IMG/VR virus record: IMGVR_UViG_3300026549_000070
Length of the DNA stretch: 10,975 nt
Direction: 5' to 3' (one strand)
Source: a virus
Lineage: Duplodnaviria > Heunggongvirae > Uroviricota > Caudoviricetes
Under the pieces are notes generated by a model. It was not told the DNA's origin, made no database searches, and worked only from the letters and a program-made list of their open reading frames with translations. Numbering within the stretch: position 1 is the stretch's first letter; every line of letters begins with the position of its first letter. Below are positions 1,421 through 7,473 of the stretch, piece after piece. The translations under genes were made by a program, and so were the position numbers.

Positions 1421-1555
1421 ATGAAAGCAATGATGGTTTGTAAATCAGTTAAGTCAGTAAAACTTGCCGGTCACATTAGTCTTCCAGTTTCTTTCGCCGG
1501 CTTTGCACCAGTTGCAGCTATTGCCCCAATTTCAGGACAGTGGCAGATCAAGTGA
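1421..1555 (+). CDS. Putative attenuator leader peptide 1, 44 aa: MKAMMVCKSVKSVKLAGHISLPVSFAGFAPVAAIAPISGQWQIK
   Basis: Manual translation; strong RBS AGGAGAAAGGA; stop TGA 1553-1555 overlaps the antiterminator 5' strand. Confidence 0.8.
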   Translation: MKAMMVCKSVKSVKLAGHISLPVSFAGFAPVAAIAPISGQWQIK

Positions 1556-1603
1556 GCCTAGTAAAATTTGGATTTTACGGGCTCAACTAAAAGTTGAGCC
1601 TTT
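1554..1603 (+). terminator. Overlapping antiterminator/terminator (attenuator 1)
   Basis: GAGCCT-A-GTAAAAT-TTGG-ATTTTAC-GGGCTC (1554-1584) shares GGCTC with terminator GGCTCAACT-AAA-AGTTGAGCC-TTT (1580-1603); U-tract is short. Confidence 0.75.
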
Positions 1604-1613
1604 AATGATTTAT

Positions 1614-1686
1614 AGGTGCGTGGTGTAAAGGTTTAGCATTACGGTTTCCAAGTCCGTCGGTGGGAGTTCGAATCTCTCCGCGCCTG
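1614..1686 (+). tRNA. trnW: tRNA-Trp(CCA)
   Basis: AGGTGCG/CGCGCCT; loop TT-CCA-AG; G73. Confidence 0.92.
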
Positions 1687-1702
1687 AAAACTAAAATTAC
1701 TT

Positions 1703-1776
1703 TGGGCATTAGTAGTAATTGGTTAGCTACCCGCTCTGATAAGGCGGAGGTCTCTGTTCAAATCAGAGATGCCCAA
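1703..1776 (+). tRNA. trnI: tRNA-Ile(GAT)
   Basis: CCGCT-CTGATAA-GGCGG; CTCTG-TTCAAAT-CAGAG; exact ends uncertain by 1 nt. Confidence 0.88.
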
Positions 1777-1784
1777 TAAAATAT

Positions 1785-1856
1785 GTACCTGTAGTATAAC
1801 GGCTAGTACGCGGCCTTGCCAAGGCTGAGGCGAGGGTTCAACTCCCTTCAGGTGCT
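1785..1856 (+). tRNA. trnG: tRNA-Gly(GCC)
   Basis: GTACCTG/CAGGTGC; CGGCC-TTGCCAA-GGCTG; U73. Confidence 0.92.
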
Positions 1857-1866
1857 TTCATTTGTA

Positions 1867-1942
1867 CGGGCAGTCGGCTAGCGGCGATGCCACTTGGTTT
1901 GGGACCAAGCATTCAACGGAGGTTCGAGTCCTCTCTGCCCGA
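1867..1942 (+). tRNA. trnP: tRNA-Pro(TGG)
   Basis: CGGGCAG/CTGCCCG; CTTGG-TTTGGGA-CCAAG. Confidence 0.93.
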
Positions 1943-1948
1943 TATTAC

Positions 1949-2021
1949 TTCTCTGTGGTGTAAGCAGGTAGCACCCAAGATTCTGGTTCTTGTTGTCTGG
2001 GTTCGAGTCCTAGCAGAGAAA
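1949..2021 (+). tRNA. trnQ: tRNA-Gln(CTG)
   Basis: TTCTCTG/CAGAGAA; CAAGA-TTCTGGT-TCTTG. Confidence 0.92.
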
Positions 2022-2145
2022 AAATCTTCTGTGAATTCCTAACGCAACACCGACGCGTTATGCGGGAGCGGGAGAATAAACATAGCAGTTCCTCTAAGAG
2101 GAAAGAAGAATTGGTAACAATCTTCACGGATAAGCAGAAGATTTT
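2021..2145 (+). ncRNA. Unassigned structured RNA between tRNA-Gln and tRNA-Ala
   Basis: Closed by perfect 11-bp AAAATCTTCTG/CAGAAGATTTT; internal GTGAA/TTCAC, TAACGC/GCGTTA, TTCCTC-TAA-GAGGAA. Confidence 0.5.
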
Positions 2146-2148
2146 TAT

Positions 2149-2225
2149 GGGGCTGTGGCACAGTGGTCAACTGCACTGGTTTTGCATACCAGCATTTATC
2201 GTGGGTTCGAATCCCACCAGCTCCA
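2149..2225 (+). tRNA. trnA: tRNA-Ala(TGC)
   Basis: GGGGCTG/CAGCTCC with G3:U70; CTGGT-TTTGCAT-ACCAG. Confidence 0.93.
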
Positions 2226-2306
2226 CTTACTTTATTGATTGTTTACTAACTATTCAATAAGAAAAAACATTTTGGGTAGCAACCTGATAGCTAAGGATTG
2301 ACGAAT

Positions 2307-2435
2307 ATGAATTTTTCAAAGATGTCGAACATAGTTAAACATTCCTCATTTGTTAGTTTCGTATTGGGATGCGGTATGTGTTCGAAGATGGTCCTTCGTT
2401 CTCTCTTTGGAAAACATTTCGTATTAGAGCCTTGA
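2307..2435 (+). CDS. Putative attenuator leader peptide 2, 42 aa: MNFSKMSNIVKHSSFVSFVLGCGMCSKMVLRSLFGKHFVLEP
   Basis: Manual translation; TAAGGA RBS upstream; stop TGA 2433-2435 lies inside the antiterminator 5' strand. Confidence 0.75.
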   Translation: MNFSKMSNIVKHSSFVSFVLGCGMCSKMVLRSLFGKHFVLEP

Positions 2436-2495
2436 AGTTGTAAGCAGGAACAGTTTACAGATTTTTCAAGGCGGCTCTTAGGAGTTGCCTTTTTT
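2426..2495 (+). terminator. Overlapping antiterminator/terminator (attenuator 2)
   Basis: GCCTTGAA (2429-2436)/TTCAAGGC (2465-2472) with inner TGTAAGC/GTTTACA; overlaps terminator AAGGCGGCTC-TTAG-GAGTTGCCTT-TTTT (2468-2495). Confidence 0.8.
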
Positions 2496-2503
2496 GTTAA
2501 TAT

Positions 2504-2585
2504 GGGTTTGTGGTGGAACGGGGATACACGCTAGCTTAAGGTACTAGTTCCGAAAGGATTGAGAGTTCAAATCTCTCCAGGCCCA
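2504..2585 (+). tRNA. trnL: tRNA-Leu(AAG)
   Basis: GGGTTTG/CAGGCCC; CTAGC-TTAAGGT-ACTAG (C31-A39 mismatch, G37); long variable arm. Confidence 0.82.
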
Positions 2586-2590
2586 TTTAT

Positions 2591-2661
2591 CCAAACTTGG
2601 TGTAGCGGTAGCACAGGTGACTGAAGATCATCTAGCTGGGGTTCAAATCCCTGAGTTTGGG
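2591..2661 (+). tRNA. trnF: tRNA-Phe(GAA)
   Basis: CCAAACT/AGTTTGG; GGTGA-CTGAAGA-TCATC. Confidence 0.85.
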
Positions 2662-2668
2662 CTATTAT

Positions 2669-2741
2669 GTTGAAGAAGTTCATACGGTTGAACGCTGCCC
2701 TCATAAGGCAGATGTAGCAGGTCCGAATCCTGCCTTCAGCA
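2669..2741 (+). tRNA. trnM: tRNA with CAT anticodon (elongator Met, or Ile2 if lysidine-modified)
   Basis: GTTGAAG/CTTCAGC; CTGCC-CTCATAA-GGCAG; G1:C72 and no GGG/CCC, so not an initiator. Confidence 0.85.
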
Positions 2742-2743
2742 AT

Positions 2744-2814
2744 GTGTTATTCGTTCAACGGTAGGACCGTGGATTGTGGATTCACTGATGAGGGTTCAAC
2801 TCCCTCATAACACC
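2744..2814 (+). tRNA. trnH: tRNA-His(GTG)
   Basis: GTGTTAT/ATAACAC; GTGGA-TTGTGGA-TTCAC; C73. Confidence 0.9.
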
Positions 2815-2822
2815 TAACATTT

Positions 2823-2906
2823 GGAAGTGAGTGAGGTTGGCGCTCTAAACTGTCTTGAAAACAGTCACCCCTAAAAAGGTCGCAAGTTCGATTCCTGTCG
2901 CTTCCG
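2823..2906 (+). tRNA. trnS: tRNA-Ser(TGA)
   Basis: GGAAGTG/CGCTTCC; ACTGT-CTTGAAA-ACAGT; long variable arm; G73. Confidence 0.88.
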
Positions 2907-2916
2907 TCAACTTTAT

Positions 2917-2989
2917 ACCGCGTTGGTTCATCGGCTGGAACAGCACCCTTACAAGATGTTTTAGGAAGGTTCAACTCCTTCACGCGGTA
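2917..2989 (+). tRNA. trnV: tRNA-Val(TAC)
   Basis: ACCGCGT/ACGCGGT; loop CT-TAC-AA; one anticodon-stem mismatch. Confidence 0.88.
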
Positions 2990-2998
2990 TAACAATAT

Positions 2999-3071
2999 GA
3001 TGAGGTAGCCAAATTGGTGAGGCAGCAGTCTGCAAAATTGTTATAGGTGGGTTCGAATCCCATCCTCATCT
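2999..3071 (+). tRNA. trnC: tRNA-Cys(GCA)
   Basis: GATGAGG/CCTCATC; GCAGT-CTGCAAA-ATTGT; U73. Confidence 0.92.
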
Positions 3072-3074
3072 TAT

Positions 3075-3161
3075 GGGCGTGTTACCATAGCTTGGCCGAA
3101 TGGGGCAGACTCTTAATCTGCTGACGAAAGTCCACCGGAGGTTCAAATCCTCTCACGCTCA
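3075..3161 (+). tRNA. trnK: tRNA-Lys(CTT) with long variable arm
   Basis: GGGCGTG/CACGCTC; GCAGA-CTCTTAA-TCTGC; variable arm GAC-GAAA-GTC. Confidence 0.85.
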
Positions 3162-3168
3162 TTATTTT

Positions 3169-3252
3169 GTGCTCGTGATAGCAGAGTGGGATTGCGCCAA
3201 ACTTTTAATTTGGAGTCGAAAGACAGACCGAGTTCGATTCTCGGCGGGCACA
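3169..3252 (+). tRNA. trnK: tRNA-Lys(TTT) with long variable arm
   Basis: GTGCTCG/CGGGCAC; CCAAA-CTTTTAA-TTTGG; variable arm GTC-GAAA-GAC. Confidence 0.85.
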
Positions 3253-3282
3253 AAACTTGTTAATATAAAAAACATAGGGATT

Positions 3283-3650
3283 TTGGCATTTCTAGGGTTA
3301 TGAGTTCAACAAATGATGTGAATTATGTGTTGTTCCATAACGCTTTGTTTCAAGCTTGCGCCTGATTTGAAAGACAAGGGAAACACGAGAGATTGTTGTA
3401 CCAAGTGTACAATAATTAAGGAAACGTCTAATACACGCTATCCTTCTCAAACAACTGACAGAACCTGATACACTTAGAGGCATTAAAGTTTTGAACTCGT
3501 CAAGCAAAACTGCTGCTCAAAGGATGATGAAGCCCGTGTCCCACATGCAGGTCAAATAATGGTGATACACAGTAGCCACTCAACTTCATCAGTGAAAAGG
3601 ATCCCGCCGAGTAGGACGTTCGATACAGATTCTTAGTACTGTGAAACATA
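3283..3650 (+). ncRNA. ~370-nt structured RNA candidate containing a 21-codon ORF (3300-3365); family unassigned
   Basis: Preceded by TTGTTAATAT (3257); helices 3343-3379, 3396-3412, 3487-3511, 3526-3590; crossing pair CACAGTA/TACTGTG (3568-3574/3637-3643). Confidence 0.5.
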
Positions 3651-3808: not shown

Positions 3809-4246
3809 ATGAAGAATATATTATTATTTATTTGGCAGTTACCACAAAATATCATAGGATTGCTTATAATGCTAGTTAACTTTAAGAGCGTTACTATGGA
3901 TAAGTCCAAAAAATGTTTTAGAGTAAAACACTTATGTGATTGTGGGATATCTTTAGGTAATTATATAATTATCGACTCAGATGTTAACTGTAAATATCAG
4001 ACCATTTGTCACGAACAAGGCCATCAAAAGCAAAGTCAAATGTTCGGTTGGCTGTATTTAGTCTTGTTTGGACTACCATCTATATGTGGAAATATTATTG
4101 ACAGAGTTTTCCATAAAAATTGGAAGTTATCAAAAAGACTATATTGGTATTATAATTTGCCTTGGGAAAAAAGCGCAAACAAACTTGGCGGCGTGCACGA
4201 AATATATATGGGTCAAGTTGAACACTTAGAAAGATTTAATTACTAA
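3809..4246 (+). CDS. Hypothetical membrane-associated protein with HExxH motif (possible zincin-like peptidase)
   Basis: Hydrophobic N-terminus IWQLPQNIIGLL; HEQGH; hydrophobic segment GWLYLVLFGL. Confidence 0.75.
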   Translation: MKNILLFIWQLPQNIIGLLIMLVNFKSVTMDKSKKCFRVKHLCDCGISLGNYIIIDSDVNCKYQTICHEQGHQKQSQMFGWLYLVLFGLPSICGNIIDRVFHKNWKLSKRLYWYYNLPWEKSANKLGGVHEIYMGQVEHLERFNY

Positions 4247-4273
4247 TGTGTATATAGTAATTATCAATATTAT

Positions 4274-4393
4274 ATAGGCAAAAGTTGTTCCTATTATCGT
4301 AAGTGGGTTCGACTCCCACCATCAGGATTTCCTGATGAGGTGAAACGGTGACACACGAGACTTAAAATCTTGCACCATTTACAACAGGCCTAT
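4274..4393 (+). ncRNA. Circularly permuted tRNA-Leu(TAA) inside a Y-RNA-like closing stem (element 3)
   Basis: T-arm 4303-4319, acceptor 3' strand CATCAGG 4320-4326, A-TTT, acceptor 5' strand CCTGATG 4331-4337, D-arm, CGAGA-CTTAAAA-TCTTG 4356-4372; flanks pair ATAGGC/GCCTAT and GTTGT/ACAAC. Confidence 0.75.
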
Positions 4394-6659: not shown

Positions 6660-7473
6660 ATACTGTTGCTACTGCGTGACTAAATGTATGCGCCCACTTA
6701 ATTTTTTCTGAGTTGTAAGGCTTTACTGAAGCAATAACTCTTTCCCAAGGAACAATCAAATCATTACCGCCATTTGGTGCATCATATTTATTTGTTTTTG
6801 GATTGTACTTACCCCAAGGATCATCAATAATAATTGACACAGGAGTGGTTTCAGGAAGCTCTTCCAAGTTTTCTTTTCTAAACTCAACACCTTTTTCCCA
6901 TTCAGCTTTACTATACTGAACACCTGTTACACAAACAATATGACCAAAGCCGCCGAAGTTTGTTGAGATTACCATAGGCAGGTTGTCCTCTACCATATAA
7001 CGCCAAAGCGCTTTTTTGAAATTAACTTTCTGTGAAAAGTGAGTTGCATTTGTTCCAATCCATTCATTTGTGCCTAATGACAAATAGTCGTGAAGCTCGG
7101 TAGGAAAATACATTGCGTCAAGTTCTGCTTTATTACAACTTCCATCTAATGATTTAATAAACAAGTTGTACATCGCAGGCTGCCGCTTCTTAAACTCAGC
7201 AAGAATTGTTGGTGATGTTAAGATATGTAAGCCAAGGTTGTCTTCAGGTTGTTTATACTTTCCTGATGGAAAAATGAATCCTGAATATTGAGCCCCCATG
7301 ATCATTGATGTTACATTACACATATTCTTCCAAGATATTCGATATTGTGCTTTCGGTTTTGCTGTTTCTGATGGCCAAATGAGTTCGTTGTTTCTTTGTG
7401 ATGAATTGATGATTTCGTGCCCATCTTTATCTTTGTCACATTCAAATGTAACAATTCCATTTTTCTCTAACAT
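6658..7473 (-). CDS. C39-like cysteine peptidase
   Basis: Cys in KNMCNVTSM, His in FGHIVCVTG, Asp in IIIDDPWG; GGAGG RBS on the - strand. Confidence 0.75.
   Translation of the reverse strand: MLEKNGIVTFECDKDKDGHEIINSSQRNNELIWPSETAKPKAQYRISWKNMCNVTSMIMGAQYSGFIFPSGKYKQPEDNLGLHILTSPTILAEFKKRQPAMYNLFIKSLDGSCNKAELDAMYFPTELHDYLSLGTNEWIGTNATHFSQKVNFKKALWRYMVEDNLPMVISTNFGGFGHIVCVTGVQYSKAEWEKGVEFRKENLEELPETTPVSIIIDDPWGKYNPKTNKYDAPNGGNDLIVPWERVIASVKPYNSEKIKWAHTFSHAVATV

Follow-up and report, generated by a model that had tools for sequence, protein, structure and literature searches.

Two enterobacterial leader peptides are multivalent: ilvL, the leader of the ilvGMEDA operon, senses Ile, Leu and Val, and the leader of the thr operon senses Thr and Ile. 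In Escherichia coli, attenuation through the pheM leader of pheST controls phenylalanyl-tRNA synthetase. Phage tRNA genes are usually seen as constitutive helpers in codon usage or as spares against tRNA-cleaving defences. Here, a stretch of 10,975 nt (IMG/VR record IMGVR_UViG_3300026549_000070, referred to as the window) from the tRNA region of a jumbo phage was analysed; the phage is uncultivated and comes from cattle-gut samples. Three short open reading frames (ORFs) of this phage and its relatives, designated L0, L1 and L2, precede successive blocks of tRNA genes and are, in our assessment, likely to be ribosome-mediated transcription attenuators that gate these blocks. The original prediction, made from the sequence of the window, concerned L1 and described a translated leader that mirrors the downstream tRNAs and ends on a terminator/antiterminator; this core reading was supported, with qualifications, by comparative tests.

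The mechanism probably follows the logic of classical leader-peptide attenuation, and its target, tRNA genes, would be what is new. As in ilvGMEDA and thr, a short translated leader would carry the codons of several amino acids, rare codons among them, and the position of the ribosome would decide between a terminator and an antiterminator that exclude each other. The phage leaders differ in regulating tRNA genes rather than biosynthetic enzymes, in spreading about 40 codons over 8–14 amino acids where ilv and thr have a tight run of control codons, and in having no clear region 1:2 pairing, so that loss of translation is predicted to give read-through and not super-attenuation. They are also phage-encoded, occur as three differently tuned copies in series, and show no sequence or Rfam similarity to these leaders. 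With trpL, L1 would share a ribosome at the stop codon that masks the strand pairing with the 5′ arm of the terminator, and its Trp codon, about four codons before the stop, has a similar spacing; unlike trpL, L1 has this single Trp codon among 13 other amino acids, its target is tRNA-Trp plus five further tRNAs, and it has no Rfam match. The pheM leader is likewise an attenuator that controls a component of the translation machinery by the supply of charged tRNA, but it belongs to the host, governs a synthetase and senses one amino acid, whereas in the phage the tRNA genes are the output and would act directly on the step that is sensed. In T-box riboswitches of Gram-positive bacteria, too, tRNA status bears on whether an intrinsic terminator ahead of translation-related genes is read through, but a T-box binds one uncharged tRNA directly and without translation, whereas the phage element appears to be a translated ORF. 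A cmscan search of the whole window against Rfam returned tRNA matches only, with no Trp, His, Leu or Thr leader family and no T-box at the gathering score. It had been remarked in the original prediction that no multi-amino-acid leader over tRNA genes was described, and a full-text literature search, which left most subscription journals uncovered, found no leader-peptide control of tRNA genes in phages or in cells.

About 19 tRNA or tRNA-like genes, all on the + strand, were identified in the window using ARAGORN and Rfam. Between 1613 and 3162, ARAGORN called Trp, Ile(gat), Gly(gcc), Pro(tgg), Gln(ctg), Ala(tgc), Leu(aag), Phe, Met(cat), His, Ser(tga), Val, Cys and Lys(ctt); one more tRNA-like gene (3170–3252), found by Rfam alone, has the anticodon loop CU-UUU-AA and is hence Lys-like. 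The tRNAs of 1613–3252 serve 14 amino acids (W, I, G, P, Q and A, followed by L, F, M, H, S, V, C and K). Relatives were gathered via the neighbouring CCA-adding enzyme and the leader peptide, and the loci fell into two clades. Clade I comprises the window, L001 (a 259-kb IMG/VR contig with DNA about 90 % identical) and L016–L019; clade II comprises L002/L003 and L012–L015 (contigs of 117–295 kb), with a CCA-adding enzyme that is 74–76 % identical. The order of the tRNA array is kept among the relatives, although homing-endonuclease genes interrupt it in places, and every locus that reaches far enough holds three short ORFs with a Shine–Dalgarno sequence, namely L0, L1 and L2, in both clades. 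The leaders and tRNA blocks of the window are as follows.

1406–1410, + strand: Shine–Dalgarno sequence AGGAG of L1, read from the sequence and kept in all 10 loci.
1421–1555, + strand: leader ORF L1, 44 codons plus TGA, with an ATG start (ORF list, codon counts and 27 variants).
1613–2226, + strand: tRNA block 1, comprising Trp(cca), Ile(gat), Gly(gcc), Pro(tgg), Gln(ctg) and Ala(tgc) (ARAGORN and Rfam).
2307–2435, + strand: leader ORF L2, 42 codons, with an AAGGA Shine–Dalgarno sequence (ORF list and composition).
2503–3252, + strand: tRNA block 2, comprising Leu(aag), Phe, Met, His, Ser(tga), Val, Cys and two Lys-like tRNAs with long extra arms (ARAGORN and Rfam).

The AGGAG sequence sits 10 nt upstream of the L1 ATG, in agreement with the 44-codon ORF and ribosome-binding site first proposed. 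All 44 residues of L1 fall within the set of 14 amino acids served by the downstream tRNAs (binomial P 1.1e-8). The amino acids D, E, N, R, T and Y together make up 34 % of residues in the long ORFs of the phage, where a share of roughly 30 % had been assumed for the earlier estimate of near 1e-7. In 200,000 random protein windows of 44 residues, not one was devoid of all six. Counting also bore out what had been claimed of the codons: Pro is always CCA (3/3), Gln always CAG (2/2) and Leu always CTT (2/2), Ile is ATT or ATC, and 15 of the final 19 residues are W, I, G, P, Q or A. The N-terminal half is written in the amino acids of block 2. Three of the seven Ala codons are GCC, compared with 3 % in phage genes; such rare codons are characteristic of known leaders (PMC2836559). 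No D, E, N or Y is introduced by the replacements that distinguish L1 of the two clades. The window and L001 are about 99 % identical over the L1 unit, with the loci overall at 89–92 %.

The two other leaders have compositions of their own. The tRNAs for D, E, N, R, T and Y are absent behind L1, and are therefore located just upstream of the window behind their own leader, L0. This ORF of 40 codons (for example, 1377–1499 in L001) lies ahead of Glu, Asp, Asn, Thr, Tyr, Arg(tct), Met, Leu(caa) and Leu(taa), and is rich in D, E, N, T, Y and R, precisely what L1 avoids; in L001, 31 of its 40 residues are E, D, N, T, Y, R, M or L (binomial 1.2e-5). In the relatives, the L1 block consists of Trp, Ile, Gly(gcc), Pro, Gln(ctg) and Ala, and L2 precedes Leu(aag), Phe, Met, His, Val, Cys and Lys, followed by Gly(tcc), Arg(acg) and Ser(gct). 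Thirty-three of the 42 L2 residues are L, F, M, H, S, V, C or K, the eight of its own block (binomial 1.6e-7), with zero Ala, Trp and Gln. Random protein windows matching the L0, L1 or L2 compositions numbered 0–12 per 200,000.

The fit was examined at the codon level by a permutation in which the leaders were held fixed, the tRNA genes were shuffled among the blocks and the leader codons readable by the leader's own block were scored. The observed fit was reached by 21 of 200,000 shuffles for L001, 0 for L016, 12 for L013 and 21 for the window (two leaders), corresponding to P from 1e-4 to below 5e-6. The leaders also follow isoacceptors. In L0, Arg is AGA or AGG and Leu mostly TTG, and its block has tRNA-Arg(tct) and tRNA-Leu(caa); in L1 and L2, Arg is CGY and Leu mostly CTY, with tRNA-Arg(acg) and tRNA-Leu(aag) downstream. 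Phage genes at large use both kinds of Arg and Leu codon freely. In clade I (6/6 loci), tRNA-Ser(tga) lies behind L2, whose Ser codons are six TCN and one or two AGY; in clade II (4/4 loci), the gene lies in front of L2, whose Ser codons are zero TCN and three or four AGY (Fisher P 0.015, for what is one evolutionary contrast). Homologous arrays had been suggested as a check, with leader composition expected to co-vary with tRNA content while the peptide drifted; the Ser codons of L2 co-vary with the position of tRNA-Ser(UGA) in this way, but the L1 peptide is not simply drifting. Taken over the loci, the leaders are enriched, though not absolutely, in codons decoded by the downstream tRNAs.

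An apparent loss of tRNA-Ile(gat) in L001, L017 and L019 was rejected as an ARAGORN miss: a non-canonical Ile(GAU) gene occupies the same position. The anticodon loop of this tRNA-like gene (5972–6054 in L001) reads CU-GAU-AA and its anticodon stem is followed by an insertion, in L017 and L019 as in L001, and RNA library run X7 has the same kind of cassette replacement at window position 1692–1772. Because ARAGORN had missed this gene, tRNA presence or absence was used to test co-variation only in the case of Ser(tga), which is detected well.

The end of each leader overlaps a pair of alternative RNA structures, which in the window are the following.

1553–1585, + strand: L1 antiterminator hairpin, with its 5′ arm at 1553–1559 (containing the stop codon), an inner hairpin at 1561–1578 and its 3′ arm at 1579–1585 (stepwise folds and conservation).
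1580–1612, + strand: L1 intrinsic terminator, with its stem at 1580–1600 (free energy, dG, −12.6 kcal/mol) and a T-poor tail at 1601–1612 (folding and clade comparison).
2429–2497, + strand: L2 attenuator, with antiterminator arms at 2429–2436 (stop codon 2433–2435) and 2465–2472, and a terminator at 2468–2491 followed by a T-run (folding).

The TGA of L1 (1553–1555) lies in the 5′ arm, UGAGCCU (1553–1559), which pairs with GGGCUCA (1579–1585); the placement of the stop in the 5′ strand of a hairpin, given originally as 1554–1584, was therefore correct. The L1 antiterminator and terminator exclude each other because both contain 1580–1585. The terminator stem (9–10 bp, G+C-rich) ends 12 nt ahead of tRNA-Trp, with the tail ending 1 nt before that gene; the two clades have the identical stem, and clade II has TTTTTTGATTT as its tail. 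All seven pairs of the L1 outer helix are kept in 9/9 distinct sequences, with wobble-compatible changes and no double compensations.

The same design recurs in all three units of both clades: the last codons or the stop codon of the leader form the 5′ arm of a helix, and the 3′ arm of this helix is the 5′ arm of the terminator. The attenuator sequences differ between the clades while this design is kept. The L2 arms are GCCUUGAA/UUCAAGGC in clade I and UUGCCUGAAA/UUUCAGGCAA in clade II, an extra U in the 5′ arm being matched by an extra A in the 3′ arm, a compensation that was read directly from the sequences. The T-tail is canonical for clade II L1 and for L0 and L2. The latter two share a terminator/antiterminator module, TTGCCT ... 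AGGCAA(A)CC ... GGTT(T)GCCT plus a T-run (L001 1489–1555; L012 5579–5640 and 10990–11048), and both peptides end near Leu-Pro, which suggests a duplicated cassette whose coding part may have been rewritten.

Folding was modelled in steps, as a stand-in for folding during transcription, and with the footprint of a ribosome treated as unpaired. In the stepwise folds the antiterminator was the best structure until the 3′ arm of the terminator had been made. For L2 of both clades and L0 of clade I, the probability of the terminator was 0.00–0.21 in naked RNA or with the ribosome at least 7–8 codons upstream, and 0.75–0.97 with the ribosome in the last 4–6 codons; in the window, L2 gave 0.09 when naked and 0.75 with the ribosome in the last four codons. 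Pairing of the region 1:2 type was limited in the window to a weak 5 bp (1499–1503 with 1555–1559) in the minimum free energy fold of L1. None was evident in L2 or L0, where naked RNA favours the antiterminator.

Constraint of a coding type was found in the leaders. Pooled between the clades, the proportion of non-synonymous differences (pN) was 0.29, compared with 0.50 for synonymous differences (pS; P 4.5e-4). The 27 variants of L1 (41–44 aa) have indels in frame only, and its Shine–Dalgarno sequence, ATG and stop position relative to the hairpin are conserved, as are the Shine–Dalgarno sequence and ATG of L0 and L2. The rate of non-synonymous change (dN) was higher in the leaders (0.25–0.56) than in neighbouring protein genes (0.12–0.25), the synonymous rate (dS) of L0 and L1 was lower (0.43–0.77 compared with about 0.9–1.5), and codons at conserved residues were more often identical in L0 and L1 (70–86 %) than in neighbouring genes (58–65 %). 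Although the numbers are small, this pattern would be in the direction expected if codon identity outweighs peptide sequence. The ORFs, their conservation, the match of codons to tRNAs and the alternative RNA structures are established by these comparisons.

Three further elements were noted ahead of L1.

1320–1356, + strand: conserved motif A (AACTCTTACA...TACTAAnTAAATA), directly after tRNA-Leu(taa), found upstream of L0 and L1 in both clades and of L2 in clade I.
1369–1384, + strand: inverted repeat TTCAGAA-ac-TTCTGAA, just upstream of the promoter-like motif and kept before L1 in both clades.
1389–1397, + strand: promoter-like motif TGTTAATAT, which resembles an extended −10 element, with a predicted transcript start at about 1404 (motif count).

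The promoter-like motif has six exact copies in the window (423, 1389, 2495, 3258, 4605 and 10872), all on the + strand, compared with 0.17 expected. It often stands straight behind the T-run of a terminator, lies exactly 6 nt ahead of the ATG of an AAA_28 gene that lacks a Shine–Dalgarno sequence in four lineages, and also precedes other genes and a tRNA-Met. Judged from its position only, it is a putative phage promoter of the extended −10 type, and the AAA_28 start behind it points to leaderless mRNAs. The copy at 1389–1397 would start the L1 transcript just before its Shine–Dalgarno sequence; a sigma-70 consensus scan found no two-hexamer promoter ahead of L1. The 12 nt that separate the L1 terminator from tRNA-Trp contain no copy, and block 1 therefore needs read-through. 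Motif A could represent either another class of promoter or an RNA element, and the inverted repeat, which has an analogue ahead of L0 in clade II, may be a protein-binding site or a hairpin. The copy at 3258 opens a region (3258–3650) in which a 21-codon ORF (3300–3365) has a composition unlike the next tRNAs, Gly(tcc) and Ser(gct). Contigs from the run X7 RNA library reach 5–6 times the depth of their neighbours over 3284–3643, and the region might encode a structured RNA, and not a fourth leader.

On the attenuation model, transcription would begin at a promoter of the TGTTAATAT type about 17 nt before the start codon, and a ribosome loading at AGGAG would trail RNA polymerase over about 40 codons, largely those read by the downstream tRNAs. 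When decoding is fast, the ribosome would be at the stop while the polymerase makes the terminator and would block the 5′ arm of the antiterminator; the terminator hairpin would then form and transcription would end just before the first tRNA. Should any of the tested codons be slow, the ribosome would lag, the antiterminator would form first and the polymerase would read into the tRNA block. Decoding might be slow where host tRNA is scarce or damaged, or where phage demand is high, and the new phage tRNAs would speed decoding and re-close the gate, giving negative feedback. Without translation of L2 or L0, read-through is predicted to rise because the antiterminator is the fold of their naked RNA. 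In the original prediction, the switch was linked to starvation or to a tRNA-cleaving defence, which is speculation.

A number of observations weigh against this model. Translation of the leaders, coupling of ribosome and polymerase and conditional termination are what we infer from the observed features. All the loci belong to one phage family and amount to about two independent observations. The exact identity between the 14 amino acids of L1 and those of the tRNAs, as originally claimed, holds in the window but not across relatives, where T, D, E, N or Y occurs in 13 of the 27 L1 variants, mostly as singletons; the match is an enrichment and no rule. Clade II L2 has 5–6 Asn and two Thr, and clade II L0 three Lys, that are unserved by the block behind. 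Permutation at the amino-acid level and at some two-leader loci was weak (L002 and L018; z 1.0–2.0), because L1 draws on the amino acids of block 2 in its N-terminal half. With block 0 polar and blocks 1 and 2 largely non-polar, part of the contrast between L0 and L1/L2 could come from peptide character alone. The first 12 codons of L1 are almost invariant, synonymous sites included, and this near-invariant N-terminus could reflect another function of the peptide or RNA.

Thermodynamically, L1 is the weakest of the switches. The terminator that had been placed before tRNA-Trp and called mutually exclusive with the antiterminator does share nucleotides with it, but its U-tract is poor in clade I (TTTAATGATTT). 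The folding check that had been called for gave the L1 antiterminator of the window in stepwise folds only; the equilibrium fold of the whole naked leader holds the terminator with an inner small hairpin (z-score only −0.87), whereas that of clade II holds the antiterminator (z −3.3). The probability of the terminator in naked RNA of the window was 0.49, and dipped to 0.07–0.17 only with the ribosome 5–7 codons before the stop. There are also possible bypass promoters in clade I: TTGAAC-N17-TATATT follows the L0 terminator, and a copy of TGTTAATAT behind the L2 terminator abuts tRNA-Leu(aag), with a predicted start that falls inside the tRNA.

These bypass sites would suit an account in which the ORFs encode small functional peptides, the hairpins are ordinary, in part leaky, terminators or insulators, other promoters transcribe the tRNAs and the match in composition is a by-product, as when hydrophobic and acidic peptides adjoin blocks that chance to be sorted alike. 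The polarity of the blocks would suit it too, as would the L1 peptide, which is 63 % identical between the clades with a nearly invariant N-terminus and dN/dS below 1. However, no family in Pfam or PHROG matches any of the three peptides, and L1 and L2, both non-polar, are nevertheless split along the divide between blocks 1 and 2, with L2 devoid of Ala, Trp and Gln. Peptide function fails to predict that Arg, Leu and Ser codons track isoacceptors, that the Ser codons switch after a tRNA has moved, or that the stop lies inside the antiterminator arm in all three units of both clades, and no promoter motif separates the L1 terminator from tRNA-Trp. We consider this account improbable. Leader translation might instead regulate the blocks without sensing particular codons, as a general sensor of translation speed or ribosome availability, or through RNA processing, stability or Rho access. 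With no clear 1:2 pairing, read-through would follow from a stall at any of about 40 codons and equally from a leader left untranslated, and leaders do contain codons for the tRNAs of other blocks (block 2 in the N-terminal half of L1; Asn and Thr in clade II L2). Yet a general sensor needs no block-specific composition, isoacceptor tracking or Ser co-variation, and the hairpin plus T-run of L0, L2 and clade II L1 is that of canonical intrinsic terminators, which leaves this explanation, too, with a rather low probability.

It appears very unlikely that the ORFs are incidental and that the region is non-coding RNA, for instance signals for processing or structured stretches that space the tRNAs. 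Structured, tRNA-like spacers are abundant in the tRNA arrays of this phage family and short ORFs are common by chance, but the conserved AGGAG and ATG at the right spacing, length changes confined to the frame, pN below pS and a stop position conserved relative to the hairpin all argue against it, and Rfam matches were to tRNA only. RNA-library contigs, which give neither ends nor strand and may contain DNA carry-over, were not counted as evidence for any of these explanations: in cattle-gut metatranscriptome run X2, one contig spans 1200–3577 with no difference from the window (depth 205 compared with 20–34 for its neighbours), and in run X7, from a related strain, contigs bridge each leader and its tRNAs.

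Attenuation by codon-specific leaders was also sought outside this phage family, where no independent confirmation was obtained. Cultured-phage records (INPHARED, blastn) gave single-tRNA matches only and no relative, and scans of viral contigs with the L1 and L2 peptides found nothing beyond the same IMG/VR contig. Distant homologues of the CCA-adding enzyme used as anchors (L007, L020 and L021) had no tRNA arrays nearby. Among 80 viral loci with AAA_28 homologues, tRNAs were present only at L037, L047, L058/L061 and L032/L046, with no convincing leader; L037 1456–1551 is one weak candidate. Quick looks at the tRNA regions of phage T5 and crAss001 revealed small ORFs, but no unit of ORF plus terminator that clearly matched. 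T5.070 (L022 8628–8756, minus strand), with 42 residues including six Cys and immediately upstream of tRNA-Cys, was rejected, being zinc-ribbon-like and with no intervening terminator; a 27-aa ORF ahead of the Phe and Leu tRNAs of crAss001 (4195–4278) is merely suggestive.

The arrays themselves vary in several respects. The two Lys-like tRNAs of the window (3074–3162, loop CU-CUU-AA, and 3170–3252, CU-UUU-AA) have a long, GAAA-looped extra arm of a kind unusual in tRNA-Lys, and L001 has three ordinary Lys tRNAs in their place. The slot behind L1 is filled by tRNA-Trp(cca) genes of unrelated sequence in the window (1613–1687) and in L016 (9184–9258), an allelic cassette replacement within clade I. 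Homing-endonuclease-like ORFs (HNH, DUF559) were found in L001 (6980–7597), L002 (4830–5576, 6072–7172 and 8338–9006) and L016 (9565–10509); the insertions are at differing sites of the array, one of them between the L2 terminator and the first tRNA behind it. A conserved element of about 36 nt, which starts with CTAACGCAACACC and includes an AACGC/GCGTT hairpin, lies at 2040–2076 in the 127-nt gap between tRNA-Gln and tRNA-Ala of the window, and recurs upstream of L2 in L002 (about 7255–7290). An ORF of 100 codons inside the tRNA region (217–519), rich in Arg, Glu and Asp, is kept in L001, L016, L017 and L019 and had no family match above threshold.

If L0, L1 and L2 act as attenuators, they would tie tRNA supply directly to decoding speed in a feedback loop, and would be the first known case, in the literature searched, of classical attenuation applied to tRNA genes. 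This would help annotators to predict which small ORFs in phage tRNA arrays are regulatory, and it suggests that synthetic biology might gain compact, tunable sensors that report whether a tRNA of choice is charged or intact. A broader reading, which we regard as doubtful, is that the three cassettes are modular, re-tunable sensors, L0 and L2 being duplicates with coding parts recast to fit the tRNA block of each, that read decoding speed codon by codon and release the matching tRNA set on demand, also when a host anticodon nuclease destroys particular tRNAs such as tRNA-Lys; L1 has five Lys codons and L2 four, and the two Lys tRNAs of the window have the unusual extra arms. Were it true, these leaders would represent a widespread phage circuit for counter-defence and tRNA supply, and not a curiosity of one family.

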